Made by a program: the position numbers and the translations under genes
In this document: positions 1,238 through 48,088 of the stretch, piece after piece
Numbering within the stretch: position 1 is the first letter of the stretch
Layout: every line of letters begins with the position of its first letter
The notes under the pieces: generated by a model
Told to the model about the DNA's origin: nothing
Database searches by the model: none
Seen by the model: only the letters and a program-made list of their open reading frames with translations
NCBI GenBank assembly: GCA_016205145.1
Contig: JACQJH010000002.1
Coordinates: 489,696-553,695, forward strand
DNA: 64,000 bases
Direction of reading: 5' to 3'
Origin: Candidatus Iainarchaeum sp.
GTDB lineage: Archaea; Iainarchaeota; Iainarchaeia; Iainarchaeales; JACQJH01

Positions 1238-1445
1238 ATGTAGCCGTCACGCCCGGCTAGTGCGAACTAAGGCTTATCATGGCAAAATCGCGATTTTGCC
1301 ATGTGCCCGGAATCTTGGGATTCCGGTGCATGCCGCTGCAATAAGCCGAGTAAGCTTTTTGCAAATAAGTGGCGTTGCAACAGCAACGCCACGCAAGGGG
1401 CGTGCGAGGGGCGAAAGCCCCTGCCTGCGCGCTGTTGCGCGTGAC
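1238..1445 (-). repeat. interspersed structured repeat family, copy (inverted orientation)
   Basis: Contains CCGGCTAGTGCGAACTAAGGC (compare copy 35745-35920 in reverse), GAGTAAGC, and the hairpins GGCGTTGCAACAGCAACGCC and GGGGCGTGCGAGGGGCGAAAGCCCC. Confidence 0.6.
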
Positions 1446-4924: not shown

Positions 4925-5287
4925 GTGGAAGAAATGCCAGCAAGAACAGAGAGAAACGGAAACAGAAACGGGCGGCCGGAAAAGCCAAAGCCGGCAAGAC
5001 TCGGATTTTTTTTGCGAAGGAAAGCGGTTTCCGCCGAAAGAAGACTTTCAGCACAGGTGGCCGATGTTCAACTGCTGGAAAAGCGACTTGCCGGGGAAGA
5101 AAACGACGACAAGCGCAACGCCCTGCAGGCAATGCTTGGCTTGCGCCGGAAACAAGCTGCTTCGGCAATCCGCAGGGAAATGCCCGCACTCGAAGAAATG
5201 GCGGGAAGGCTCGAAGGCCTGCAGTCGGAAGAAGCGGAGCGCATTGCGCAAAAAATCAGGCAAATCATTGAATTCGGGCAGAATTGA
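4925..5287 (+). CDS. hypothetical highly charged coiled-coil protein
   Basis: 120-aa ORF in the priL-PCNA intergenic space. The second half is a plausible charged helix (LEKRLAGEENDDKRNALQAMLGLRRKQ...). The start is uncertain and an alternative Lys/Arg-rich frame (4894..5271) exists. Confidence 0.3.
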   Translation: MEEMPARTERNGNRNGRPEKPKPARLGFFLRRKAVSAERRLSAQVADVQLLEKRLAGEENDDKRNALQAMLGLRRKQAASAIRREMPALEEMAGRLEGLQSEEAERIAQKIRQIIEFGQN

Positions 5288-5303
5288 AAACAAAAAAAAA
5301 CGG

Positions 5304-6029
5304 TCAGAGTATCATGTGCGCCAGGTAAAAGTTTATTTCGGAGTCGCCGATCGGATACGAGATTTTCATCGGCGAATCGGTCTTGAGCTCAAGCAGGATT
5401 TTTTTGTCCGCGTCGGCCTCGCGCACGATGTTCTGCAAAAAATTCAGGGAATACTTGCTTTGGGTGTCGGCCGAGCTTTTCACGGAAACGCTTTTCCCGT
5501 TCGACTGGTCGCTGCGCATAGTTCCCTGGCTGCCCTTCGCCTCGATTGAAAGCTTGCCTTTTTTCACGTTTATGACGGCTGCGCTGCCGAACAAGGCAGC
5601 GTCTTTCAGGACTTCCCTGAAAATGCGCGCATTGATCTCGATGTGCGAGTCGAAGCCCACCTGCGGAACCTTCGGCTCTTCCTCGGAAACGTCTATGAGC
5701 GGCAGGCTGAATTTTCTCACCAGGTCGCCTTCAAAGGTCAAAGCCATCTCGTTTTCCGTAAGGTCGAGAACCATCCTGTCGCCGGGCAGTGCGCGCAGCA
5801 TTATTTTGGACAGCTCGGAAATGTCGACTCCTGCAAAAGCCGGCTCGACAGCATACCTGTCAAAAATCTTTTTGTCAAGGAAAAGGTCGACCAGCACAAT
5901 CTGGCTTGGGTCGATTGCCCTGAACAAAACGCCCTTGTCGGAAAAATGGAAATTGCCCTCCGAAATGAACGATGAAATCGCCTGCACCGCCTTCTGCCAC
6001 GAATCAAGCTTTTTGAGTTCAATCGCCAT
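5304..6029 (-). CDS. pcn: DNA polymerase sliding clamp PCNA (paralog 1)
   Basis: 241 aa, with PCNA-family motifs (FRAIDPSQIVLVDL, ...VRKFSLPLIDVSEEE...) across a two-domain clamp of the right length. Confidence 0.85.
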   Translation of the reverse strand: MAIELKKLDSWQKAVQAISSFISEGNFHFSDKGVLFRAIDPSQIVLVDLFLDKKIFDRYAVEPAFAGVDISELSKIMLRALPGDRMVLDLTENEMALTFEGDLVRKFSLPLIDVSEEEPKVPQVGFDSHIEINARIFREVLKDAALFGSAAVINVKKGKLSIEAKGSQGTMRSDQSNGKSVSVKSSADTQSKYSLNFLQNIVREADADKKILLELKTDSPMKISYPIGDSEINFYLAHMIL

Positions 6030-7363: not shown

Positions 7364-8857
7364 TTACGCATTTTCCTGCACGAACTGCACCAGGAGCCTC
7401 ACGCCGAATCCCGTCGCCCCGACCCAGGAGTATTGTTTCGGCGCCTTTTCGTTCCACGCAGTTCCCGCAATGTCCAAATGCACCCACGGCGTTTCGCCGA
7501 CGAATTTTGAAAGGAAGCCCGATGAGACGATCATGTCCGCAAACATGCTTTTGCCCAGATTTCTTACATCCGCAACGTCGCTTTTCGTCTGCTCCTTGTA
7601 TTCGTCATACAACGGCATTCTCCAGACGCGCTCGAAAATCTCCTGGCCGGTTTCAAACATTTTTTCCGCGAACTTGTCGTTGTTCGAAACCATGCCCGCG
7701 ACAAAATCGTCGAAAGTGCCGATGCAGCTTCCCGTGAGGGTTGCCGCGTCAACAATGAGCTTGGGCTTGATTTTTTCCGACGTGAACGCAAGCGCGTCCG
7801 CGAGAATAAGCCTTCCCTCGGCGTCAGTGTCAGCCACTTCGACGGTTTTGCCGGAATAAGACTTGATTATGCTGCCCGGCTTGTAGGATTTCGCGCCGAC
7901 CGCGTTTTCGACTATCGGCAAAACCGCGACGACGTTCACTTTCGCCTTCAGCTCAGCCAGGGATTTCACCGCCGCAAACATTGTTGCCGCGCCGGCCATG
8001 TCAAGCTTCATGTCCTTCATGTCCCTTGTCTTTATGTCCAAGCCGCCTGTGTCGAATGTTACCCCTTTGCCGACCAGAGCAATTTTGTCCTTTTTTGACT
8101 TGTTGCCGTTGTATTCCAATATGAGCATTCTTGGCGGGAATTCCGCGCCCTTGCCCACTGCAAGAATGAGGTTGAAGCCCTGCTTTGCAAGCTGTTGCGC
8201 CGTGAGTTCCCTGCATGAAACCCTCGCCCTTTTCGCCAAAGCCTTTATCTGCCTTGAAAACGTTTCGGTGTTCTTCTGCCAGGGGCTCTCGTTGACCATG
8301 TCGCGCACAAGGCAGACGTTGCTGCACACTATCGCGGTTTCCTTCACCGCCCTTTGCGCGGCGGCAATGTCCCCGGACTTCAGGATGACGGTAAAGGTTT
8401 TCACGTTGGAGCGCTCCTTCGCATCCTCAAGCAGATATTTGTCGAAACTGTAATGGCCGAGAATGGCGCCTTCAGTGATTGCCTGCAGTTCCTTTCCCTT
8501 TCCCTCGCCGAAGCCCTCAAGCGGGAACGCAACGGACGGATGCTCTATGCCGAGGCTTCTGCATGCCCTTGCAACGATTGCCGAAGCCTTGCGCAGCTTT
8601 TCAAGCGACAGCTCCTTCCTCTTGCCGAGGCCGAGCAAAAAAACGTTTTTTATTTTAGGAAGCGGTGCATTCGGAATGAGAAAGGCCTGGCCGTCCTTTC
8701 CTTCAAAGCCCTTTTTCGGAAGCGCCGCCTTGAACCTTGAAAAAAAGCCGTTGCCGGATTTTTTGAGTTCCTTCAGCTTTTCCTCTGAAACAAAAATTGC
8801 AAGCAGTTCAGTTTCCGCTTTTTCAAAATCCCCGGACTTGACGCGAACCTCGACCAT
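7364..8857 (-). CDS. pepA: leucyl aminopeptidase (M17 family)
   Basis: 497 aa. M17 catalytic signature VADTDAEGRLILADAL and the conserved C-terminal domain. Confidence 0.85.
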   Translation of the reverse strand: MVEVRVKSGDFEKAETELLAIFVSEEKLKELKKSGNGFFSRFKAALPKKGFEGKDGQAFLIPNAPLPKIKNVFLLGLGKRKELSLEKLRKASAIVARACRSLGIEHPSVAFPLEGFGEGKGKELQAITEGAILGHYSFDKYLLEDAKERSNVKTFTVILKSGDIAAAQRAVKETAIVCSNVCLVRDMVNESPWQKNTETFSRQIKALAKRARVSCRELTAQQLAKQGFNLILAVGKGAEFPPRMLILEYNGNKSKKDKIALVGKGVTFDTGGLDIKTRDMKDMKLDMAGAATMFAAVKSLAELKAKVNVVAVLPIVENAVGAKSYKPGSIIKSYSGKTVEVADTDAEGRLILADALAFTSEKIKPKLIVDAATLTGSCIGTFDDFVAGMVSNNDKFAEKMFETGQEIFERVWRMPLYDEYKEQTKSDVADVRNLGKSMFADMIVSSGFLSKFVGETPWVHLDIAGTAWNEKAPKQYSWVGATGFGVRLLVQFVQENA

Positions 8858-32389: not shown

Positions 32390-33244
32390 CTATTCGCCAA
32401 TTGACTTTGTCAGGTCGGGCCTCACAAGCCTTCCGAGCACGTTCAGGCGCCTGAGGCTTTCAAGCAGCTGTTCCCGTGAAATGCCCAGGCGCATGACATG
32501 CGGCTCGGAAAACAGGCCGTCAAGTGTTTCAATGCCTTCCGTGCGGCACGCGCGCAAAACTTTCAAATCCTGCATTGCCTTATGCCGCGCCGGGTCGTTT
32601 GTTTCAAGCGAAAACACTGCATGGCTTTTCGGCTCCGGCCGACCGGAAGCAAACGGGCCTTCCCTGACAAGCAAATCGAATTCCCTTTTGTTCCAGGACG
32701 CGCCATAAGCGCGCGCAATCACAGCCAGTACATTCCGTTCAAATCCAACATTATCCGGATTGGAAATAACTATTTTTGCCCCTTTGCGGTTCAGAAGGCT
32801 GCGCAACAACGACAATGGCAGGCCACCGCCCCAATACAGCGGAAAAGGCTCGAATGAAACGCTCCAGTCAAACCTGTTTTTGGAAAGTGGAATCCTTGAC
32901 GCTTCACGCGTCCTGAACGAACGGATGCGCGTGCCCTCAGGATTCTGCTCCTGCAAAAGCCTTGCACGCCGCACCATGCCGGCGGAAGCGTCCGTGAAAT
33001 GGACTTCCGCCTGTTCCGCCAAAGCCTTTGCCCAATTGCCGGTGTAGCCGGCGAAAAAAAGAATTTTGCTGCCAGGCTCAATGCCGAGATGATGTAAAAG
33101 GCGCGGATCCGCAGGCACTGTTGCCTGGGCCGCTCTCACGCTCGGCACAGACCAAGGATCCGCATCAGCAAAGATTTTCACCTCGTGCGGAACAAGAAAA
33201 CGCCGTCGCCTTGCACGCGGTGGTTCCGAAGCCAAACCAATCAC
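32390..33244 (-). CDS. hypothetical protein, possible Rossmann-fold SAM-dependent methyltransferase-like
   Basis: 284 aa, Arg-rich and relatively GC-rich. Weak motif-I-like segment GSKILFFAGYTGNWAKALAEQAEVHFTDAS; immediately downstream of orc1/cdc6. Confidence 0.4.
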   Translation of the reverse strand: MIGLASEPPRARRRRFLVPHEVKIFADADPWSVPSVRAAQATVPADPRLLHHLGIEPGSKILFFAGYTGNWAKALAEQAEVHFTDASAGMVRRARLLQEQNPEGTRIRSFRTREASRIPLSKNRFDWSVSFEPFPLYWGGGLPLSLLRSLLNRKGAKIVISNPDNVGFERNVLAVIARAYGASWNKREFDLLVREGPFASGRPEPKSHAVFSLETNDPARHKAMQDLKVLRACRTEGIETLDGLFSEPHVMRLGISREQLLESLRRLNVLGRLVRPDLTKSIGE

Positions 33245-34416
33245 GCCTTTTTCTGCGCGCCGGCAACATTCGGGGAATTTCCTGCCGCGTGCAGCTTTTT
33301 CATTTCCTCTGAAAGCAATGCTGAAGAAACCGCGAGTGAAATCTTGCGGGACTTGCCATGCATTCCGCTTTCAACGAGCGGCGCGCTGACAAGGTTCAAA
33401 TGCTCAAGCTTTGAAACAATGTCGCGAAATCTCCTCAATGAAAGCTTTTGCCCGGACTTCTCCGAAAACGCCTTGAAAAGCTCGCCTGACAGCGCATCGT
33501 CATGCGAACAAAGCAATTGCAAAACCAGGAGTTCGGAATCATTCAGCGAGGGAAGGACTTTTTTGAACGGGTGCTCGTCGACAAGCGCGAACGCCTTTTT
33601 CAGGTGCAGAATGGAAACCTTCTGCGAATTCTCCTTTTCAGCTTCCTTGCCCGCGCGCCACAAACATTCAATCGCAATCCTCGCGTCCCCGCCAAGGCGC
33701 GAGGCATGGCCGGCCGCGACGTTTATGACTTCATCGTCAAGGCTTCCCGGCAGGAACGCATACTTGCACCTTTCCGCAAGTATGTCCTTCAGCTGCTTCG
33801 GTGAATAGGGGTTGAAGGCAATGTCCTGCACGTGCAATGAACTTCTCACGCGCTCGTCAAGCCTTGAAACCAGTGCGGGGTCGTTTGAAATCAGTATGAG
33901 GCCGAAGCGCTTGTCGCAAAACTCTATGACGCGCAGGAGGTCATAGAAAACCTTGGCCTCTTCCGGCTCGGCAAGCAGCTGTTCCGCCTCATCCAGCACA
34001 ACTATCGGAGCAAAATCCGCTTTTTTGAGCATTTCAAGGATTTTCGAATACACCTCGTCGGTTGCGATCCCGCGCCTCGGCACAGCCGCCTTCAAAAAGT
34101 TTGCGATTGCCGACAGGATCGAGTGGCGGGAATTGTACTCAAAGCAGTTCAGGTAAAGGCCTTTCGCCCTGTCCGAAAATTCCTCAAGCTCGTTCAAAAC
34201 GAATTTGACGCTCGCGGTCTTTCCCGTTCCGGTTTTCCCGAAAACAAAAACGTGCTGCGGCTTCTTGCCCTCTGAAACCGGTTTCAATGCAAAGACAAGC
34301 GCGTCGATTTCCGCATCCCTGTGCGGCAGGACAGCCGGCACATGCTCAGGGTACAGCACTGCCTCGCTGCGGAAAACCTGAGCTTCCCTGCCCTTTCTCT
34401 CGAAAACATTCGGCAT
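33241..34416 (-). CDS. cdc6: Orc1/Cdc6 replication initiator
   Basis: 391 aa. AAA+ Walker A VFVFGKTGTGKT, Walker B VVLDEAE, and a C-terminal winged-helix domain. Confidence 0.85.
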   Translation of the reverse strand: MPNVFERKGREAQVFRSEAVLYPEHVPAVLPHRDAEIDALVFALKPVSEGKKPQHVFVFGKTGTGKTASVKFVLNELEEFSDRAKGLYLNCFEYNSRHSILSAIANFLKAAVPRRGIATDEVYSKILEMLKKADFAPIVVLDEAEQLLAEPEEAKVFYDLLRVIEFCDKRFGLILISNDPALVSRLDERVRSSLHVQDIAFNPYSPKQLKDILAERCKYAFLPGSLDDEVINVAAGHASRLGGDARIAIECLWRAGKEAEKENSQKVSILHLKKAFALVDEHPFKKVLPSLNDSELLVLQLLCSHDDALSGELFKAFSEKSGQKLSLRRFRDIVSKLEHLNLVSAPLVESGMHGKSRKISLAVSSALLSEEMKKLHAAGNSPNVAGAQKKA

Positions 34417-34449
34417 GCAGAAAAGATATTGCTTAAAACGGATAAAAAT

Positions 34450-34630
34450 GCATCGGGCGGCGGTTTCGTCCGCAGCCGGTTCCGTCCGGCTGGTTCGGAA
34501 CCAAGGCGTATCACTGTTGTGATACGCCGAGTAAGTAACATTAAAGTTTTCGGGGGCGTGCGAGACGCGGAGCTCCCTGGTCGGGATTAAGGCTTATTGC
34601 TGCTACAATAAGCCGGGTAAGCGACAGTAA
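34450..34630 (-). repeat. interspersed structured repeat family, copy or copies (inverted orientation) upstream of orc1/cdc6
   Basis: CAGCCGGTTCCGTCCGGCTGG, GGCGTATCACTGTTGTGATACGCCGAGTAAG, GGGGCGTGCGAGACGCGG, GGCTTATTGCTGCTACAATAAGCCGGGTAAGC. Confidence 0.55.
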
Positions 34631-34730
34631 AAAAAATTTGGAGCTGCAGTAAAAGTACCCGCTGCGCGAGAGCCCGTCTGCCCGCAAAAAAAAAACAAGC
34701 TTTTAATACAACCTGAAACAAGATTATTGG

Positions 34731-34900
34731 CATGAGGTTCGGCGAAGGCATTTTTGACAGGGTTTCGGCTGAAAAAATCATGCTCGGCATCGTTCTGCTT
34801 ATTGCAATAATCGCCTTGCTCGCAATAATCGCGAATTCCGCGAACACCACGGTTTCAAGCGCCTCGCATTCGGTTTCCGCGATTTCCGGCGGCCTCAACA
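34731..34900 (+). CDS. small hydrophobic peptide (56 aa), hypothetical
   Basis: ATG at about 34731; product MRFGEGIFDRVSAEKIMLGIVLLIAIIALLAIIANSANTTVSSASHSVSAISGGLNKLA. It sits between orc1 and nfo, below the ORF-track length cutoff. Confidence 0.25.
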
Positions 34901-34915
34901 AGCTTGCGTGATTGC

Positions 34916-35744: not shown

Positions 35745-35920
35745 CCAGCCAAGCCGGATTTCGCCACCAGTCCGGCCTATGCGAGCAGGGCAGTGCCTTG
35801 CAAACCCCTTGCGTGGTATTGCTTGCGCAATACCACTTATGCACAAACAGCATACTCGGCGTATTGCAACAGCAATACGCCTTAGTTCGTACCAGCCGGA
35901 CGAGACGGCTGCGGGCGAAA
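35745..35920 (+). repeat. interspersed structured repeat family, copy
   Basis: Hairpins GTGGTATTGCTTGCGCAATACCAC and GGCGTATTGCAACAGCAATACGCC flank CATACTCGG, then TTAGTTCGTACCAGCCGGACGAGACGGCTGCGGGCG. Confidence 0.6.
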
Positions 35921-39348: not shown

Positions 39349-39990
39349 TTGCCTATGGAAGCCAAATTAAGCGTATTCGACTGGCCGTCGCTGATTGATG
39401 ACAGGGAAAAACGGGATTTGCTTATTGCGTGGGTTGCCTTGTCAATCGCGTTCGGATTGAGCTTTGCCCGTAACGGCGGCCTGCTGTTTTCCTTTGCGAC
39501 AAGCTTTCTCGCGGTCGGCACCGGCTTCATTTTCCATGAGCTCGGCCACAAGTTTGCCGGCATACATTACGGCGCAAGCGCGGGCTTCAGGAAATGGGAT
39601 TTCGGCCTGGGCCTGGCCTTGCTGCTCGGCGCGATGTCTTTCTTCACGGGCTTCGGATTCATTTTCGCGGCTCCCGGCGCGACGTACATCTATTCCGAAA
39701 GCATTTCAAGGAAGCAGAACGGCTTAATCTCGCTTGTCGGCCCGGCAATCAACATTGCCCTGGCGCTAGCGCTTTTCCTGTTGAGCATTTTTTCCGCGAT
39801 GTTTTTCCCTTCCGGGCTCATTGCCGGCGTCCTGCTGTTTGCCGCGATAATCAACCTCTACCTTGCGTTTTTCAACATGCTGCCGATTCCGCCGCTTGAC
39901 GGCAGCAAGGTCATAGTCTGGAACCCGGTAATCTGGGGCGTTGTTTTCGTGCCGCTGCTTTTCCTGTTCTATTTTTCGGGCATACTTTGA
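39349..39990 (+). CDS. site-2 protease family (M50) intramembrane metalloprotease
   Basis: 213 aa. HELGH zinc motif, a multi-TM core and the LPIPPLDGSKV motif. Confidence 0.8.
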   Translation: MPMEAKLSVFDWPSLIDDREKRDLLIAWVALSIAFGLSFARNGGLLFSFATSFLAVGTGFIFHELGHKFAGIHYGASAGFRKWDFGLGLALLLGAMSFFTGFGFIFAAPGATYIYSESISRKQNGLISLVGPAINIALALALFLLSIFSAMFFPSGLIAGVLLFAAIINLYLAFFNMLPIPPLDGSKVIVWNPVIWGVVFVPLLFLFYFSGIL

Positions 39991-40137
39991 AATCAGAATT
40001 AGAAATTAATCGTGCAGAATTTATCTGACGTAAAAACTATCTGACATAGCTCGGCCTGAAATCAAAACTATGGCAGGGGGCTCCGCCCCCTCGCACGCCC
40101 CTGGAAAAAAAACTATCTCACGTAGCTTGGCCTGAAA
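39991..40137. repeat. tandem degenerate repeats at the convergent M50/cdc48 gene ends, including a recoded duplicate of the last 8 codons plus stop of cdc48
   Basis: Three copies of (C/T)TATCT(G/C)AC(G/A)TA and three of TGAAATC(A/C)(G/A)AA(T/C). The segment 40035-40062 on the minus strand reads gat ttc agg ccg agc tat gtc aga tag (DFRPSYVR*). That matches the real cdc48 terminus at about 40112-40138 apart from 4 synonymous changes. A GC hairpin GGGGGCTCCGCCCCC lies between the copies. Confidence 0.55.
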
Positions 40138-42506
40138 TCCGAATAGTGGTCTTCGAAGCTTTCGTAGGCTTCCTCGGTTTCTTCGTTGACGGATGGCCTG
40201 ACTTTTTTGAGCGCATCCGCAAAGTCTTCCGGAAGAACCTGCTTTGCCTTCATCTTGTTCTTGTCCAGGGAAATCAGCGCGGCTTCCCTCACCAACCCTT
40301 CCAGGTCGGCGCCGGAAAACCCTCTTGTCTGGCCGGCAATGGCCTCAAGGGAAACTTCCTTTGACAGTGGAACGTTTCTTGTGTGGATTTTCAGGATTGC
40401 AAGCCTGCCTTTCTCGTCCGGAGCATTCACCTTTATGAGCTTGTCAATCCTGCCCGGCCTGAGCAAGCCCTGGTCGATTAAATCCGGCCGGTTCGTCGCG
40501 GCGATGAAGACGACGTTTTTCAGCGCCTCCACTCCGTCAAGCTCGGTCAAAAGCTGGTTCACCACTCTTTCGGTCACTCCGGAATCCGTTACCGAGCCGC
40601 GCCTTGATGCAATCGAATCGATTTCGTCGAAGAAAACTATGACGGGCGCGGTCTGCCTCGCCTTCCTGAAAATCTGCCTTATGCCCTTCTCGCTTTCCCC
40701 CACCCATTTGCTTATAAGTTCGGGGCCTTTCACTGAAATGAAGTTGGCCTCGCTTTCCGTTGCGACCGCCTTCGCCAGAAGCGTCTTTCCCGTTCCGGGC
40801 GGGCCGAACAACAATACTCCGGTCGGAGGCCTTATCCCCATTTTCTTGAAAACATCAGGGTATTTGAGCGGCCATTCGATTGCCTGCATCAGTTCTGCTT
40901 TGACTGCGTCAAGCGCCCCGACCTGCGACCATTTCACGTTCGGAATCTCGATTGTTATCTCGCGCAAGGCGGATGGCTGCACGTCCTTCAGTGCGTCCTG
41001 GAAATCGCGTTTCATTACTTCCATGCTTTCAAGCAATTCAGCGGGAATCGTGTCCTCGTTGAGGTTGATTTTCGGAAGGTAGCGGCGCAATGCCTTCATT
41101 GCCGCTTCCTTTGTCAGGCTTTCAAGGTCAGCGCCGACAAAGCCGTGCGTTATCCCCGCATAATAGTCGAGGTCGAAATCGTTTTCCTTGACAAGCTTTT
41201 CCTCGACAAGCGTTTTCAGGCACGGAAAATACGTTTCATCGAACGCCTTGTCCCGTTCCCTTGCATTCAGCTCTTTTTCGCGCAATGCCCTCTTCAACTC
41301 GTCCTTTTCAAATTTGGAGTTGGAATTGAAGGCGTCAAGGATTTTTTCCTCGGTTGCGGAAAGCCTGCGCTTGGACTCGTTGCCGTGCGAAAAGAATTTC
41401 GCCAGGGGCATGCCGCGCGTGTGGATCTGCAGAATGTTCTTGCGCGAGTTCCTGTCAGGGACCCCGAACTCTATTTCGCGGTCAAACCGCCCCGGCCTGC
41501 GCAGTGCCTCGTCAATCGAGTTGACCCGGTTTGTGGCGGCAATCACGACAACGTTCCCCCGCGCCTCGAGGCCGTCCATGAGTGAAAGGATTTGCGCCAC
41601 AACCCTGCGCTCCACCTCTCCAATGACCTCGTCGCGCTTGGGCGCAATCGCGTCGATTTCGTCGAAAAATATTATCGAAGGCGCGTTTTCCTCGGCTTCC
41701 TTGAAAATGTCCCTGATCCTTTCCTCGGCCTCGCCGACAAACTTGCTCATTATGCTCGGAGAGCTCACTGAAATGAAATGCGCGTTGGTTTCATTTGCCA
41801 CGGCTTTTGCGAGCAGTGTCTTTCCGGTTCCGGGCGGGCCGAACAACAGCACTCCTTTTGGCGGAATGATGCCGAGCTTGCGGAAAATCTCAGGATGCTT
41901 CATCGGCAGTTCTATGAGCTCGCGCACCTTGGTTATCTGCTCGTCCAATCCTCCGATGTCCTCGTATGCGACCTGCGGAATCCCCTCCAGCTCGCCTTTC
42001 ACCGGCTTGTCTTTCAGCACAAGCTGCGTAAAATCAGTTATTTTGACAATGCCTTTCGGCGCGGTTTCAATGACCTTGTAGACAAAGCCGGAGCCGAAAG
42101 CCGAAACCCAGACGCTGTCGCCCCTTACAACCGGCCTGCCGAGAAAGCTTTTTTTGAGTATGCGGTCGTAGCCTGACGCGATTATGCGGACTTCCTGAGT
42201 CGGGGCAAGGGTTATTTTCTGCGCCTCCCTTACCTCAGCCTTGCGCACTGAAACCTTTTCGCCCAGGCCTACCCCCGCATTGCGCCTGATGTAGGAGTCC
42301 ATGCGGATAACGCCCTTGCCTTCATCCTCGGCGCGCGCCGGCCAGATGACTGCGGCGGTGCGCTTTGAGCCCTCGATTTCAACGATGTCGCCGGAAGTGA
42401 CGTCAAGAGACTGCTTTGTCACCCTGTCAAGCATGACAATGTTGCGGCCGACGTGAGTGGGGTCGGCTTCCTCGACTTTCAGGACAATTTCCCTGCTTTC
42501 AGGCAT
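40113..42506 (-). CDS. cdc48: Cdc48/VCP-like AAA+ ATPase (N domain plus two AAA modules)
   Basis: 797 aa. Two Walker A/B sets ([17 protein letters not shown] twice; DEID twice) and the C-terminal motif DFRPSYVR. Confidence 0.9.
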
Positions 42507-44191: not shown

Positions 44192-46276
44192 TTAGCTTTT
44201 GTCCGCCGCATTTCCGGGTGCAGCTTTGCTTTTATCTGAATTGTCGTCCTTCTTTTTCCAGTCCTTTTTCGAGACGCACCCCATGTTCAGGCACATCGTG
44301 TAGGAAAAGCGCTGCGACAAAACCTTCACCATGGGCGCATTGCATTCCTTGCAGAACTCGTTCAACGGGGTTATGCTGCCCTTCTGCGGTAAAGGATACG
44401 AATTCGTGCACTTCGGGTAATTGGAGCAGCCCACGAACCTTTTCCCGGTTTTGCCGTGCCTCAAAATGAGGTTGCCGCCGCAACCATCCTTGTTGCAGGC
44501 GCTGACAATCGAGTCGTCGCGCAAGGCGCTTCTTAAGCCGGCCGCGATGCTGTCGCGGTGCTGGAGCAGTATTCCGAGGTTGGCGAGCAGTGAATCAGTG
44601 CTTTGGTCCACGACCTCCGCTTTCGTCTTCTTTCCCGCCGCAATGAAATCCATTTCGGTTTCAAGGTCGGCAGTGAATTTCGGCCTCACTATTTCCTTGT
44701 CGTATTTTTCAATCGAGTCGATGACCGCAAATGCTATCTTGTTTGGAACAATCGATGACTTGCCGGAAACGTACTTTCTCTGGAACAGCTTCTGGATTAT
44801 CGCGGGCCTTGTCGATTTCGTGCCGAGGTTGTGGCTTTCCATCAGCGAAATGAGCGAGCCCTCCGAATACCGGCCGGGCGGCTCGGTCTGCTTTGAAAGC
44901 AGGTCGAGCTTTTTCAGCAGCACTTCATCTCCTTCGGCGAGCGGCGGCAGTATAACCTCGCTTGCCTTTGAATAAGGATAGAATTCCTTCCAGCCCTTTT
45001 TTATGAAAACCTGGCCCCTTGCGACAAAGGGTTCGTCTTTCATGAGGATTTCCACTGAAAGGTTTTCCGTCTGGGCGTCCTCGGCGAGGGTTGCGAAAAA
45101 GTGCCTGCATACAAGCTCGTAAACCTTCCACTCGTCAGCCGAGATTTTTTCGCGCTGGCACGCCGAAACCGGGTGGATTGGCGGGTGGTCGGTTGTTTCC
45201 TTCGGCCCGCGCGACGGAACAGGCTCTTTTTTTGCCAGAAGCTGTTCTGCCATTGAATGGAATTCGGAAACCTCGCGCAAGGCCTGCAATATCTGCCTCA
45301 GGTCGAGGTTTTTGGGATAGACCGTGTTGTCGGTCCTCGGATACGAAATGAAGCCGTTCGTGTAAAGGCTTTCCGCAAGCGACATTGCCCTGCTTGCGGA
45401 AATGCCGATGCCCGTGGCGGCGCGCAAAAAGCCAGTGGTGTTGAATGGAATCGGCCTGCTAAGCGTCTTTTTCGTCTTTGAAACCTTCGAGACAACGCAT
45501 TTTTCCTGCCTTTTCGCCAGAACCTTTTCGGCTTCCTCCCTTTTCAGGAACCTGCCCTTCTTGTGCGAGGCCTCGAACCCCTTTTTGTCCTTTTCAAACA
45601 ATGCCAAGAGCTCCCAGTAAGGGGTTGACTCGAATTTCATTCTCGCCTTTTCCCTTTCGACTATTAGCCAGAGGGTGGGGCCCTGCACTCTCCCCATTGA
45701 CAGGAATTCCTTGCCCATCCTGCCCGCCATCAGCGAAAGAAATCTTGTGAGAACGGCGCCGAATACAAGGTCTATTTCCCTGCGCGCATCCGCGGAATCC
45801 GCAAAATTGTAGTCTACGTTGCCGAGCCTGGAAAAAGCCTCCTTTATGTCCTTGTCGATTATCGCGGAAAAATTGGCGCGCTTTATTTCGGCCTTGCCGT
45901 TTTTTTCCTTCACAAAGCGCAACGCCTCCACTCCGATGCTTTCGCCTTCCCTGTCGGAATCGGTTGCGACAATCACCGTGTCAACCTGCTGGCCGGCCCT
46001 GCGCAGCAAATCGCAGATGCGCTTTTCCGTTTCAACGTAATCAATCGGCGCCTTCGCCAGCTGCTTCAGGTCGGTGCCAAGCCAGCTTGAAAATTTTTTC
46101 GGGAAGTCCACGTCGACAATGTGGCCGCGCAATGGAACGACCACTGCCTTCCTGCCGGAATAATCGAATTCAAAAAGCTGGGCCATTCCTTCAATCTTCG
46201 TGGCAACCCTGCCGCCGGCAAGGATTTCCGCAATCCTCTTGCCGGCAATGGCCTTTTCGGAAATAATCAGTATCAT
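44192..46276 (-). CDS. topA: DNA topoisomerase, type IA (Topo I/III family) with C-terminal zinc ribbons
   Basis: Start at MILIISEKAIAGKRIAEIL; TOPRIM motif IVATDSDREGE; C-terminal Cys4 ribbons (CNKDGCGG...CSNYPKC, CKECN...CLNMGC). The listed ORF extends 26 codons further upstream. Confidence 0.85.
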   Translation of the reverse strand: MILIISEKAIAGKRIAEILAGGRVATKIEGMAQLFEFDYSGRKAVVVPLRGHIVDVDFPKKFSSWLGTDLKQLAKAPIDYVETEKRICDLLRRAGQQVDTVIVATDSDREGESIGVEALRFVKEKNGKAEIKRANFSAIIDKDIKEAFSRLGNVDYNFADSADARREIDLVFGAVLTRFLSLMAGRMGKEFLSMGRVQGPTLWLIVEREKARMKFESTPYWELLALFEKDKKGFEASHKKGRFLKREEAEKVLAKRQEKCVVSKVSKTKKTLSRPIPFNTTGFLRAATGIGISASRAMSLAESLYTNGFISYPRTDNTVYPKNLDLRQILQALREVSEFHSMAEQLLAKKEPVPSRGPKETTDHPPIHPVSACQREKISADEWKVYELVCRHFFATLAEDAQTENLSVEILMKDEPFVARGQVFIKKGWKEFYPYSKASEVILPPLAEGDEVLLKKLDLLSKQTEPPGRYSEGSLISLMESHNLGTKSTRPAIIQKLFQRKYVSGKSSIVPNKIAFAVIDSIEKYDKEIVRPKFTADLETEMDFIAAGKKTKAEVVDQSTDSLLANLGILLQHRDSIAAGLRSALRDDSIVSACNKDGCGGNLILRHGKTGKRFVGCSNYPKCTNSYPLPQKGSITPLNEFCKECNAPMVKVLSQRFSYTMCLNMGCVSKKDWKKKDDNSDKSKAAPGNAADKS

Positions 46277-46350
46277 CGGAAACAAAGCAAATTCAAGAGC
46301 AAAAGGAATAAAAACCGGAAAGAAAAAACGGCGAACCGCGAAGCCAAAAG

Positions 46351-47097
46351 TCAAAGCCGGGCATTTCCGGAATTAAATTCTATGACCTTATTCCACAGTA
46401 TAGCACCATTTTTGTTACAAAAATCGTTAATGAACTCTCCGGTAAACTTGTTTATAACTTCGCTCTTGCGTTGTCTGAAAGAATCATTGAGTTTTTTAGA
46501 TCGATATCCTATCGGGTCAACTATCAGAATATAGAAATCCTTGGTTCCGCTTATCCTATTCCAGAAATTCTGACCGCACATTTGGGTTATGAAACCTTTC
46601 TTCACCAATGTTTTCTGATTTCCATACGATATGCCCAAAATGCACTGAACATCAGATATATTCCTGTTCTGCTTCACTATACGCATTGCGGTTTTGAAAT
46701 CATTTTCCAATGCTTTCCATTGGCTGCTATTGCCCCAATTCAATCCAGACTTTACAGATACCAGATGTCTCGTTTTCTTTGTTTGAAATTCAAAATCAAT
46801 CCCTGATGCAGAAGATTTCGTTGCGTTAAGGGTTTTTTCCGCGACAAAAATTGCCAAGTGCTCCAAAAATTCTCCAAAAATCTCTTCCTCTGATGAAGAT
46901 AACTTGGCGTCCAGTATAGATGTAACTAGCTCGCTTGCGGTTACAAGATTTTTCGCCCTATATAAGTAAGGATTCTTCCGCTTCAAGAGTTCTTTGAGGC
47001 TTGTTTTTTCCAAACTCTGTAGGCGTGCGGTGTGAAATTCTGCTATGTGTTCTTTCACAAAATCTTCCACTTCGTCCAATTGGATTTTTTTCATCAA
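46351..47097 (-). CDS. putative type II restriction endonuclease (hypothetical, AT-rich)
   Basis: 248-aa ORF immediately downstream of, and overlapping, a DNA methyltransferase in a sharply AT-rich segment. No family-diagnostic motif was recognised; the call rests on context. Confidence 0.45.
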   Translation of the reverse strand: MMKKIQLDEVEDFVKEHIAEFHTARLQSLEKTSLKELLKRKNPYLYRAKNLVTASELVTSILDAKLSSSEEEIFGEFLEHLAIFVAEKTLNATKSSASGIDFEFQTKKTRHLVSVKSGLNWGNSSQWKALENDFKTAMRIVKQNRNISDVQCILGISYGNQKTLVKKGFITQMCGQNFWNRISGTKDFYILIVDPIGYRSKKLNDSFRQRKSEVINKFTGEFINDFCNKNGAILWNKVIEFNSGNARL

Positions 47098-47992
47098 ATA
47101 ACCTCTTTTCTGCTACCTTTTTATATTCTGACAATATGTCAATCATAAGGTAATTTCTGTTGAGCCTAAGGCATGCTACTCCCGTAGTCCCAGAACCTGC
47201 AAAAGGGTCCAAAACCAAATCATTTTCTTTTGTAAATAGGCGGATAAACCACGTCGGGAGGTCAACCGGAAACACAGCACTATGGTTCTTGTTGCCGCAT
47301 TCCGTCGGCATGTGCAGAACATTTGAAGGATAAACTTTGGATTTACCGACCCAGTTTGCTATCTTCTTGCCAAATCCGCTGCCAACCTTTGAGGTGGCGC
47401 GTCTCAAATCACTGGCGCTTAAATTCGCGAGACGCGTTTTGGACCATTCCCCAACAGGCACCATGACCTCTTCCTGATACATTCTGAACTTTTTTGATTT
47501 GTTGAACTGCAGGCACCGTTCCCAAGCATCCCTAAACCTGTTCGGCCACTTGCCAGGGTGGGTATTCTTCTTGTGCCAAATGAACTCTTCAGTCCATAGC
47601 CAACCCTGAGTCTTTAACTCTTTTATCAAATCCAAGACGTAAGTATGGCGTTCCCCGTTTTCAACCCTTTCTTTGATATTAAGAATAAATGTGCCTGTGG
47701 GCTTCAAAACCCGCAAAAATTCTTTTGATTTAGGCAAAAACCATTCCACATATTCATCCGGTGCGATGCCCCCATACGTGTTTTTCCTGCTGTCGGCATA
47801 TGGGGGGGAGGTCACAATGAGATTCACTGAGTTATCGGGAACTTCTTTTAGCATTTGCCCACAGTCGCCAGTGAGATACTGGTTTACGAATGCATTGGGC
47901 GCGTTTTTACCCATATTTTCTATTATGCCGGATTGTCCTATTAAAGCATAGTTATCAGGATAAACCGTTTTTGTTTCAGAACTACCCAACAT
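46958..47992 (-). CDS. DNA methyltransferase, N6-adenine/N4-cytosine class (beta group)
   Basis: 344 aa. Motif IV (N)LIVTSPPY precedes motif I DPFAGSGTTGVA (beta-class order), with a ParB/N-terminal-like target-recognition region. Confidence 0.8.
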   Translation of the reverse strand: MLGSSETKTVYPDNYALIGQSGIIENMGKNAPNAFVNQYLTGDCGQMLKEVPDNSVNLIVTSPPYADSRKNTYGGIAPDEYVEWFLPKSKEFLRVLKPTGTFILNIKERVENGERHTYVLDLIKELKTQGWLWTEEFIWHKKNTHPGKWPNRFRDAWERCLQFNKSKKFRMYQEEVMVPVGEWSKTRLANLSASDLRRATSKVGSGFGKKIANWVGKSKVYPSNVLHMPTECGNKNHSAVFPVDLPTWFIRLFTKENDLVLDPFAGSGTTGVACLRLNRNYLMIDILSEYKKVAEKRLFDEKNPIGRSGRFCERTHSRISHRTPTEFGKNKPQRTLEAEESLLI

Positions 47993-48088
47993 TATCCACC
48001 CATAAAAAATTGCAAAAGTGATTTTTAAATGCTTGCATGGCGGATTTCCGCTCAGATTAAATAAACCGATTGGCGCGGCTACCGCGGA

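Follow-up and report, generated by a model that had tools for sequence, protein, structure and literature searches.

A short hairpin element and a long target-site duplication as the probable origin of a duplicated cdc48 terminus in an Iainarchaeia genome

The 64-kb stretch of DNA analyzed here (the window) contains a cdc48 gene and a gene for an M50 peptidase that converge. The order NFACT, cdc48 and oppositely oriented M50 is conserved in Iainarchaeia, and cdc48 is surrounded by M50, NFACT, topoisomerase I, and further genes of the housekeeping kind. The cdc48 product matches MBI4053575.1 ([quoted passage not shown]) at 100%, and the exact M50 product is also encoded on Logan contig L082. 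The true terminus of cdc48 lies at 40113-40139, where it encodes DFRPSYVR and the stop codon TAG (40113-40115); the M50 gene ends with TGA at 39988-39990. The C-terminal tail of Cdc48, F-[KR]-P-[STN]-Y-[VI]-X, is kept in nearly all of the 120 homologues listed. The features of the junction, together with two further copies of the element found there, are as follows.

39355..39990, plus strand: gene for peptidase M50 (site-2 protease family, Pfam PF02163), convergent to cdc48
39991..40021, no strand: residual native spacer between the convergent genes, ~30 nt
40022..40032, minus strand: copy C, 11 nt that partly repeat the terminus, TACGTCAGATA followed by A, reading YVR-TAA
40032..40073, minus strand: copy B, whole; distal, non-coding half of the putative target duplication
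40032-40063: copy B, clean 32 nt, AAAAACTATCTGACATAGCTCGGCCTGAAATC
40064-40073, minus strand: copy B, degenerate extension, CCATAGTTTT, compared with CCACTATTCG in copy A and GCATTATTCT in the relative L209
40074..40107, plus strand: element S, 34 nt, CAGGGGGCTCCGCCCCCTCGCACGCCCCTGGAAA, made of a GC hairpin, the conserved tail TCGCACGCCCC and GAAA
40108..40149, minus strand: copy A, whole; gene-proximal half of the putative target duplication and live cdc48 3′ end
40108-40139: copy A, clean 32 nt, AAAAACTATCTCACGTAGCTTGGCCTGAAATC, comprising 5 T of the terminator run, TAG and 8 codons
40140-40149, minus strand: copy A, probable extension, CCACTATTCG, codons H-Y-S
40113..42506, minus strand: cdc48 ORF, CDC48-family AAA ATPase, 797 aa
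34553..34581, minus strand: S2, an older, partly decayed copy of S, 137 nt upstream of orc1/cdc6
1396..1425, minus strand: S3, a copy of S, CAGGGGCTTTCGCCCCTCGCACGCCCC, at one end of a hairpin-rich block of ~245 nt

Using sequence reading and a repeat search, we identified a 32-nt direct repeat at the cdc48 3′ end, with 29 of 32 positions identical and copies 76 nt apart. Both copies read GAT TTC AGG CCN AGC TAY GTS AGA TAG on the minus strand, yielding DFRPSYVR-stop followed by at least five T, so the initial annotation was right to describe two DFRPSYVR-TAG copies; its positions for them are off by 1-2 nt. The self-comparison score of the repeat is 24.5, against a maximum of 12 among 300 shuffles, and a search of the 64 kb for the 27-mer of the cdc48 terminus with up to 3 mismatches finds two sites, copies A and B, where 0 are expected. 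Four differences between the copies had been counted, all synonymous. We find that the differences are indeed silent, but there are three of them in the 27 coding bases (CCA/CCG, TAC/TAT, and GTG/GTC), all at third positions. The repeat holds just two CpGs, and 2 of the 3 silent differences fall there.

The clean repeats are 44 nt apart, and S makes up 34 of those 44 nt. Next to S, the repeat may continue for another 10 nt, in which copy B matches copy A at 5 positions and L209 at 6. This extension is moderately supported, and the target duplication probably comprises 32 clean nucleotides and 42 in all. The third partial copy noted in the initial annotation is the 11-mer TATCTGACGTA, identical at 10 of 11 positions to A and to B and reading TAC GTC AGA TAA on the minus strand; 0.16 matches with up to one mismatch are expected in the whole window. 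The copies had also been called tandem 12-mers, a description that does not fit their spacings of 16 nt (the offset of copy C) and 76 nt or the empty output of Tandem Repeats Finder. Copy C lies outside the duplication around S and is therefore older than it; it is either a small earlier duplication or native spacer. The residual spacer carries other small internal repeats, such as AATTCTG twice, and L209 has GCGCCAGAT at the position of copy C.

The arrangement is reproduced by contigs L082 and L001 of the Logan assembly of run SRR12113385, which are exact substrings of the window and together span the B-to-S and S-to-A junctions, and it is thus no artifact of a single assembler. Since independent contigs carry both junctions, we rejected a chimera assembled from two strain haplotypes. 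Each of the two contigs stops at a border of S, and their overlap is exactly 40074-40102, the 29-nt core of S, as would be expected where an assembly graph branches at a repeat; S is a repeated node in the graph of this sample.

The GC hairpin that had been noticed between the copies is part of S. It spans 40076-40090 (GGGGGCTCCGCCCCC, GGGGGC-TCC-GCCCCC), and on the cdc48 sense strand S reads TTTCCA-GGGGCGTGCGA-GGGGGC-GGA-GCCCCC-TG. The 12-mer CTCGCACGCCCC of S occurs at exactly three sites in the window, with 0.42 expected even when one mismatch is allowed. The flanks of S2 are two hairpin units of ~45 nt (CTTACYCGGC...GCCTT) that are ~65% alike and have the same geometry as at the other inserts; the position of S2 is conserved in the relative L210. 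The block with S3 at one end (~1243-1488) sits between GINS51 and aIF2-alpha. In the close relative L211, this block is absent from the GINS51/aIF2-alpha spacer and a homologous block lies elsewhere. A further copy of S, in L140, a contig of a relative, differs by 1 nt in 29. S is thus a dispersed, multi-copy sequence, with three copies in the window in addition to those in L140 and L210.

A motif of GGNGCG, 1 to 6 nt, and CGA followed by a perfect GC-rich hairpin matches three times in the 1.2 Mb searched, and the three matches are exactly the inserts in the window, in L140, and in L025. All three share a common geometry, which S2 also fits: a target copy, then 0 to 43 nt with TTTC as the last letters, GGGGCGTGCGA-hairpin-TG, and a target copy. 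S starts with CAGGGG and finishes with CCCCTG(G). These ends form a 6-nt inverted pair, which alternative hairpins use as well and which is inconsistent among S copies, with L140 and S2 ending in CCCCCG; we found no convincing terminal inverted repeats at the ends of S. Superficially, S resembles a T-arm plus acceptor strand.

Junctions that carry no insert are seen in relatives for all three of these inserts. In L209, whose Cdc48 falls in the same 90% cluster and which has the same NFACT-cdc48-M50 order at 81% nucleotide identity overall, the cdc48/M50 junction has a single terminus copy (GATTTCAGCCCAAGCTATGTCAGGTAG), no S, and a 12-nt spacer. The spacer is 122 nt in the window and -4 to 50 nt in 14 further Iainarchaeia with a directly convergent pair. 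No second copy of the C-terminal coding motif occurs within 10 kb on either side in any of 26 relatives, and no inserted material is seen at the cdc48/M50 junction in the relatives compared. Drifted tandem repeats in relatives, the pattern that the initial annotation had named as speaking against its reading, are thus not seen either. The duplication in the window is derived, and the single-copy, short-spacer state ancestral, because relatives have one copy and a very short spacer.

The L140 insert is 72 nt long, ends in S, and is flanked by CGTTGAAGAATGCGTTTTGCTTG and CGTTCGAAGCATGCGTTTTGCTTG, a 23-nt duplication extending across the stop codon of a pilin-like gene. L206/L207, which come from the window's own MAG, as indicated by protein MBI4052699.1 in the accession series of MBI4053575.1, have this junction in its insert-free form with a single copy. 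In L140, the differences between the two copies cluster next to S, and the other of the two matches the insert-free site exactly, which suggests junction-proximal errors made at insertion. An apparent third copy in L140 was dismissed as native sequence, since the insert-free site has it too. In L025, a 59-nt S-like insert with two hairpins is flanked by a perfect 20-nt duplication including the NFACT stop codon, and its close relative L205 has one copy and no insert. At each S-like insert, the flanking repeats are local target sequence, different from site to site and with no common att core; they are therefore target duplications rather than att sites. The lengths are not fixed, ranging over 20 nt in L025, 23 nt in L140, 32-42 nt in the window, and ~45 nt at S2.

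The initial annotation had suggested that the spare copy was once or is still translated. Copy B lies downstream of TAG and a T8 run and is in the +1 frame relative to cdc48 (76 = 3x25+1), and in-frame read-through meets a stop after 14 codons; copy B is not readable in frame with cdc48. If copy B served as an alternative C-terminus or a reserve one, to which read-through, frameshifting, or recombination gave access, this would account for its retention of DFRPSYVR and the stop with silent differences only, and for a tail that is highly conserved in the family. Against it stand the frame and terminator, the absence of a second copy from L209 and from all 26 relatives, and the non-silent decay of copy B in its probable 10-nt extension, with which its encoded 11 residues differ from those of A (5 differences in the 10 nt nearest S, some non-silent). 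We regard this reading as close to refuted and its probability as almost nil.

We consider it likely that S, on inserting directly downstream of cdc48, produced a long target-site duplication, and that the two DFRPSYVR-stop copies are its halves. Before insertion, cdc48 and the convergent M50 gene would have been ~10-30 nt apart, and the duplicated target would have been the last 8-12 codons of cdc48, TAG, and five T of the terminator run. Since the target covered the gene end, the gene-proximal copy A would have regenerated an intact cdc48 3′ end and kept the strongly conserved C-terminal tail, and the distal copy B would have become untranslated spacer. Afterwards, A would have taken silent changes only while B drifted. 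The repeat, the multi-copy S, and the insert-free junctions here and at two other S-like inserts are observed directly, and the spacer is a dispersed element rather than decayed coding sequence. The duplication may have been produced by staggered cleavage and fill-in or by an equivalent insertion mechanism. Inserts at stop codons probably survive through selection in a compact genome and not because the element chooses such targets, and the extra hairpin and T-runs may act as an added terminator between the convergent genes.

Several observations sit less comfortably with insertion of S. No mobilizing enzyme was seen among the ORFs scanned, those of the 64-kb window (the MAG it belongs to includes large contigs of 637 kb and 613 kb, at least two in number), and the duplication lengths are unlike the fixed lengths of most transposases. 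Silent-only change across 27 coding bases is in mild tension with it, at p ~0.03-0.07 for 3 of 3 under a model in which B decays neutrally and A takes silent changes alone. Copy C is left unaccounted for. The insert-free state of L209 could in principle be a deletion between the repeats, although comparison across the wider family points to a short spacer as the ancestral state.

The structure could also have been imported. A diverged, S-bearing strain may have donated the 3′ part of cdc48 together with S by homologous recombination, with the downstream crossover inside the duplication, in which case A would be the donor allele, the clean 32 nt of B the recipient's former functional gene end, and the A/B differences allelic differences between two live gene ends. 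This would suit a repeat with three coding differences, each of them silent, and with five differences, some non-silent, in the 10 nt of B that adjoin S, as well as the mosaic divergence seen elsewhere, where the promoter side of aIF2-alpha is ~100% identical to L211 and the adjacent GINS side ~85%. At five silent A/B differences, the outgroup L209 has the base of B in four cases and that of A in one, but L209 is too distant for this split to mean much (one-sided p ~0.19); its use to polarize the A/B differences was dropped, silent sites being near saturation at 81% identity. Identity to L209 along cdc48 has no clear block boundary near the 3′ end, and L140 has similar clustering beside S with its other copy equal to the insert-free site. 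We therefore judge an import unlikely; it would still need the original S insertion and target duplication, and so would refine that explanation without taking its place.

Integrated elements classically betray themselves by a duplicated 3′ end of a gene or tRNA, and the initial annotation had read the junction as the scar of an integrative element that was excised or decayed. A scar of insertion at the cdc48 3′ end it appears to be, with a repeat that spans the gene end; an integrase-type element carrying its own cdc48 3′ end, with attL/attR and a 44-nt remnant left by imprecise excision or deletion, is not supported because the whole insert is exactly one unit of the 34-nt dispersed element and nothing larger is needed. 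Additionally, no integrase, tRNA, or element remnant lies in the neighborhood, nothing is inserted at the junction in any relative, the other S-like inserts are flanked by their own local sequence, and it is improbable that an island was deleted while the two att sites happened to be spared. We give such a remnant a very low probability. Purely local events, namely slippage or repair-associated tandem duplication with unrelated filler DNA, seem just as improbable to us. They would fit the small local repeats in the spacer (AATTCTG and copy C at its 16-nt offset) and a duplication length that varies by site, as expected of repair products. However, the copies are not head-to-tail, being separated by S, Tandem Repeats Finder detects nothing, and the supposed filler recurs at several unrelated loci and in another genome, unlike random filler. 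Alternative 3′ cassettes, also proposed initially, are not supported, the duplicate being probably a target-site duplication by S.

A number of other candidates were rejected. A C/D-box sRNA or another known RNA in the spacer was considered, but there is no C box, and Rfam over the spacer region gave nothing at the gathering score or at E<=5. A tRNA or tRNA-fragment att site was discarded, ARAGORN finding no tRNA in the window. For a template/variable repeat pair of a diversity-generating retroelement (DGR), the differences (A/G, C/T, and G/C on the sense strand) would have to show adenines at all three positions in one copy, which neither does, and the scanned window ORFs yielded no reverse transcriptase; the same scan showed no integrase, transposase, or Cas1. 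S does not behave as a conserved structured RNA, with folding z-scores of -0.4 to -1.9 and the hairpin broken in S2. The location of S2 upstream of orc1/cdc6 prompted a comparison with replication-origin (ORB) motifs, which was rejected as a general explanation because two copies, that of cdc48 (S1) and that of L140, were inserted recently and at unrelated sites.

In viral and metagenome collections, the 27-mer terminus had no match. S had two chance-like matches in viral contigs, where the inner hairpins of the S3 block had none; among the matches listed in metagenomes, those to S were mostly chance matches in high-GC genomes, apart from L140. The S-like sequence in L085 was set aside as probably unrelated, its ORFs, read by eye, suggesting a bacterial region. 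The surroundings of that sequence, again by eye, contain phasin-like proteins, a tRNA-like stretch, and an integrase-like fragment. A literature search found no described analogue; a paper on Pyrobaculum sRNA mobility contained no such pattern.

For the duplicated terminus itself, these results are deflating, since neither a translated spare C-terminus nor a lost genomic island is left, just a target duplication. They also carry a caution that silent-only differences in duplicated gene termini can arise without selection on the spare copy. The noteworthy part is the cause, a 34-nt hairpin element that is polymorphic between close relatives and surrounded by duplications of 20-42 nt, each spanning a stop codon. 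In compact DPANN genomes with convergent genes ~10 nt apart, an insert can survive because the long duplication rebuilds the gene end. This insertion polymorphism is the basis for regarding S as mobile. Tentatively, and at somewhat less than even odds in our view, S and the L025 insert could belong to a class of insertion elements that has not been described before, ultra-short (34-72 nt), present in Iainarchaeia (DPANN archaea), and with long, variable (20-45 nt) target duplications. Such a class would be characterized by the core GGNGCG..CGA and a perfect GC hairpin, with a fixed end abutting the target copy and the other end variable. If it exists, it would imply unusual integration chemistry, for example cleavage at widely staggered positions by an integrase, whether Cas1/casposase-like or of another kind, or alternatively the copying of a small structured RNA or DNA by target priming, with truncation at the 5′ end, and the long duplications would let elements colonize the stop-codon borders of tightly packed genes while sparing the genes. 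Identification of the mobilizing activity would add a new integration mechanism to the small archaeal list and provide a marker for strain-level dynamics in uncultured lineages.

S shares features with several known systems. As in att duplications by integrases (islands and archaeal integrated viruses or plasmids), a gene 3′ end is duplicated and a functional copy is regenerated upstream of the insert; however, the repeats at S are target-derived and differ from site to site, and the insert is 34 nt long with no element body or integrase beside it. As in MITEs and other transposable elements, local direct repeats flank a short, non-coding, multi-copy insert, and insert-free sites exist in relatives. 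S-like inserts, at 34-72 nt, are nevertheless smaller than typical MITEs, their duplications of 20-42 nt are variable rather than of the usual fixed 2-15 bp, and we saw no clear terminal inverted repeats and, among the window ORFs scanned, no cognate transposase. Cas1-family integration (casposon, CRISPR, and off-target "neo-CRISPR") offers the likeness of roughly spacer-length DNA (34 nt) within a roughly repeat-length duplication (20-42 nt), and casposons insert at gene 3′ ends, with duplications of ~14-15 bp. Unlike spacers, S recurs at several sites, and its inconstant duplication length implies no ruler. We saw neither a cas nor a casposase gene in the window, and Rfam gave no CRISPR repeat at the gathering score. 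REP/REPIN sequences, which are mobilized by RAYTs (IS200/IS605-like Y1 transposases), are described mainly in bacteria, occur in hundreds of copies, and are not known to create target duplications; S has no 5′ GTAG head, and no RAYT was seen in the window. Yet S has the form of a REP, a ~35-nt imperfect GC-rich palindrome with a conserved linear tail, and the location of one, dispersed, extragenic, and typically just 3′ of stop codons and between convergent genes. Elements of the IS1634/IS1549 type are full-length IS of bacteria with a DDE transposase and inverted repeats, and they generate long, variable target duplications, the property that S has in common with them.

The window derives from a Candidatus Diapherotrites MAG (Iainarchaeia, DPANN) in which cdc48 and a peptidase-M50 gene converge, leaving a stop-to-stop spacer of 122 nt that contains a 32-nt direct repeat. 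The true gene end of cdc48 (copy A) is repeated distally (copy B), and the small dispersed hairpin element S lies between the two.

39355-39990, plus: peptidase-M50 gene, convergent with cdc48
40022-40032: copy C, an 11-nt partial echo of the terminus (YVR-TAA), 16 nt from copy B
40032-40063, minus: copy B, reading on the cdc48 strand, 29/32 identical to copy A and 76 nt apart from it
40074-40107: S (S1), between copies B and A, sequence CAGGGGGCTCCGCCCCCTCGCACGCCCCTGGAAA
40108-40139, minus: copy A, the true cdc48 gene end
40113-42506, minus: cdc48 ORF (797 aa), a 100% match to MBI4053575.1 ("CDC48 family AAA ATPase"; 637-kb contig)

On the cdc48 strand, A and B read GAT TTC AGG CCN AGC TAY GTS AGA TAG TTTTT, which is DFRPSYVR followed by the stop codon and a T-run. 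The resemblance is far above chance expectation. Two Logan contigs (SRR12113385), each identical to part of the window, cover the B-to-S and S-to-A junctions, so the arrangement is not peculiar to one assembler. The duplicated terminus described in the initial annotation is real, and its third partial copy is also present, as copy C.

The order NFACT, cdc48 and convergent M50 is kept across ~26 Iainarchaeia loci from species-representative genomes. Nearly all of the 120 Cdc48 homologues listed keep a C-terminal tail of the form F-[KR]-P-[STN]-Y-[VI]-X, so the live copy A is under strong purifying selection. Archaeal Cdc48 C-termini dock to the 20S proteasome via HbYX-type tails; the Tyr is at position -3 here, so that this link can be drawn by analogy only. 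Many relatives have a Cdc48 of ~725-735 aa that aligns to the 797-aa window protein in two segments (46% coverage), and the window protein appears to carry a ~70-aa insert between its two AAA domains. Several homologues of ~1,160-1,280 aa carry the intein Pfam domains PF14890/PF14528.

The cdc48 site without an insert is seen on L209, the contig of ENA protein P0138, a member of the 90% cluster of the window Cdc48, with identical gene order and 81% nucleotide identity overall. Its junction reads ...GAG CAT TAT TCT GAT TTC AGC CCA AGC TAT GTC AGG TAG gcgccagatttt TTA(M50 stop)..., with a single terminus copy, no S and a 12-nt spacer. Spacers of -4 to 50 nt separate the two genes in the 14 other relatives where cdc48 and M50 converge directly, and a second C-terminal coding copy was found in 0 of 26 relatives searched 10 kb either side. 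The larger insert or extra copies to be checked for at related junctions were not seen in these relatives, and their short spacers mark the A-S-B structure as derived. What remains of the window's cdc48/M50 spacer (39991-40021) exceeds its L209 counterpart by ~34 nt. It has two small AATTCTG repeats with 20 nt between their positions, and the M50 stop codon lies within TGAAATCAGAAT, similar at 11/12 positions to the GATTTCA segment of cdc48, a likeness that shuffling shows to be borderline.

A scan of 3,901 ORF ends showed duplication of the 3′ end to be rare. A metagenome scan gave, among the matches listed, an S copy with one loop-base difference in L140 (Ga0209541_10320474), downstream of a pilin-like ORF whose last codon, stop codon and next 17 nt (CGTTGAAGAATGCGTTTTGCTTG) return directly past S as CGTTCGAAGCATGCGTTTTGCTTG. 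The window's own MAG (L206/L207, encoding the 96% identical MBI4052699.1) carries the orthologous junction with a single copy, a 44-nt spacer and no insert. One other clear case, at 8088-8186 of the Iainarchaeon L025, has two copies of the NFACT terminus GCATGTAGCCTCGCCATAAA (20/20 identical) around a 59-nt two-hairpin insert at the stop codon; its close relative L205 (3940-3960) has one copy and no insert. Both the L025 insert and S carry GGNGCG-N(1-6)-CGA and then a perfect GC-rich hairpin, a combination found only in the window, L140 and L025 inserts across the 1.2 Mb examined. These sites show that a tiny hairpin element, present in several copies, is polymorphic for insertion and is flanked by long duplications of its target across stop codons. 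Hairpin spacers with direct-repeat flanks also occur at L016 3119-3227 and L021 8110-8185.

The window contains exactly three occurrences of the S 12-mer CTCGCACGCCCC, all preceded by a CAGGG..GC..CGC hairpin part; S was not found in the other 80 archaeal loci examined (~1.17 Mb). Two Logan contigs stop at the S borders and overlap each other by exactly the 29-nt S core (40074-40102), as contigs from a de Bruijn graph break at a repeat, so sample SRR12113385 probably holds more identical copies. On the strand with the core GGGGCGTGCGA-hairpin-TG, the common layout is a first target copy, a stretch of 0-43 nt with TTTC at its end, the core and a second target copy that abuts the hairpin end, or nearly so, in all cases. 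The window reads A(...GAGATAGTTTTT) / TTTCCA-GGGGCGTGCGA-GGGGGC-GGA-GCCCCC-TG / B. The 10 nt beyond the clean repeat are CCATAGTTTT in B, CCACTATTCG in A and GCATTATTCT in L209; guided by L209, the duplication is probably 10 nt longer, i.e. 42 nt, which would make the whole insert exactly one S unit of 34 nt. The copy beside the hairpin end shows, in L140 as in the window, a cluster of changes within ~10 nt of the junction, possibly a mark left by insertion.

The two further copies in the window, S2 and S3, lie beside other hairpins.

422-1189, minus: aIF2-alpha, neighbour of the S3 block
~1243-1488: S3 block, ~245 nt, hairpin-rich, with S3 at one end
1270-1354: multi-hairpin unit in the S3 block
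1396-1425, minus: S3, carrying the S 12-mer
1489-2046, minus: GINS51, neighbour of the S3 block
33241-34416, minus: orc1/cdc6, with a 487-nt upstream region (34417-34903)
34490-34535 and 34577-34621: hairpin units beside S2, direct, CTTACYCGGC-hairpin-GCCTT
34553-34581, minus: S2, carrying the S 12-mer

S2 has the geometry of the other cases, flanked by two hairpin units of ~45 nt that are ~65% alike and whose stems differ by compensatory changes. It is common to the window and relative L210, and is therefore older. In L210 one flanking unit holds a nested ~55-nt insert with two more hairpins, and a fourth match to the unit motif CTTACYCGGCKTAT, with 1 mismatch (CATACTCGGCGTAT), lies at 35851-35864 (+) in the window. 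The region upstream of orc1/cdc6 is where a replication origin is expected; it has long T/A runs, with T-runs near 34630 and 34690. Besides S3, its block contains a CTTAC unit around two perfect palindromes (CCGGAATCCCAAGATTCCGG, GGCAAAATCGCGATTTTGCC) and a 10-bp hairpin. The block has no Rfam match and is possibly a larger S-family member or the family's parent. In close relative L211 the same spacer has 68 unrelated nt instead, and a homologous block lies at another locus (5200-5319). The aIF2-alpha promoter (1190-1242) and 5′ coding region are ~99-100% identical to L211 1770-1860 and the adjacent GINS51 3′ end only ~85%, a contrast that points to mosaic ancestry through recombination between related strains. 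GC content dips to 0.43 at 46000-48000, versus ~0.52 elsewhere, around an N6/N4 DNA methylase gene (46958-47992, minus) that may have been horizontally acquired.

Several other origins for the repeat were considered. The proposed integrative-element scar holds as an insertion scar, given the insert-free relatives, but not as an integrative island or integrase att site: no integrase, tRNA or element body lies nearby, and the repeats are site-specific target DNA. ARAGORN found no tRNA gene in the 64-kb window, perhaps because tRNAs are truly missing there, perhaps because the tool overlooks those with introns or other atypical features. The repeat is not a pair of alternative 3′ cassettes either. 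The copies are not tandem in the strict sense, and a slippage array is rejected, as Tandem Repeats Finder reports no repeat and the dispersed S separates the copies. A DGR repeat pair is rejected in that A/B differences are not adenine-specific and no reverse transcriptase was found among the window ORFs scanned. Nothing in the window reached the Rfam gathering score, leaving no known RNA family, and weak folding z-scores speak against a strongly structured RNA.

Copy B had also been suggested to be translated; it is not coding. It lies downstream of TAG and T8, an oligo-T run being the archaeal termination signal, and is in the +1 frame; in-frame read-through ends after 14 codons. Of the four synonymous differences originally counted we find three in the coding part, all silent third-position changes. 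The chance of this is 0.03-0.07 if B drifts neutrally and A takes only silent changes, leaving mild tension with neutral drift. Two of the three fall at the only two CpGs in the repeat, and with the 10-nt extension included (11 residues) B shows non-silent decay relative to A. This tension leaves room for one refinement: homologous recombination with a diverged strain may have brought in the S-bearing allele, in which case the clean part of B would be the recipient's former live end. L209 is too distant to decide, and identity to it along cdc48 shows no block boundary.

For the insertion of S itself, the duplication could arise from widely staggered cleavage and fill-in, or from target-primed copying. 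Where spacers are ~10 nt, inserts would persist at stop-codon borders because nothing short of a long duplication restores the end of the adjacent gene. The hairpin and T-runs gained (T8, T4 and T5 on the cdc48 strand) may improve termination between the convergent genes. No candidate mobilising enzyme was found among the window ORFs scanned, and the literature searched yielded no description of this hairpin-insert/long-duplication pattern. Ordinary DDE transposons are unlike S, given its variable duplication length and lack of clear inverted repeats, and REP/RAYT elements, casposons and CRISPR integration fit it poorly on the same grounds. Nothing about the spare terminus is unusual in itself; the element behind it appears to be a new form of small insertion element and is worth genome-wide follow-up.
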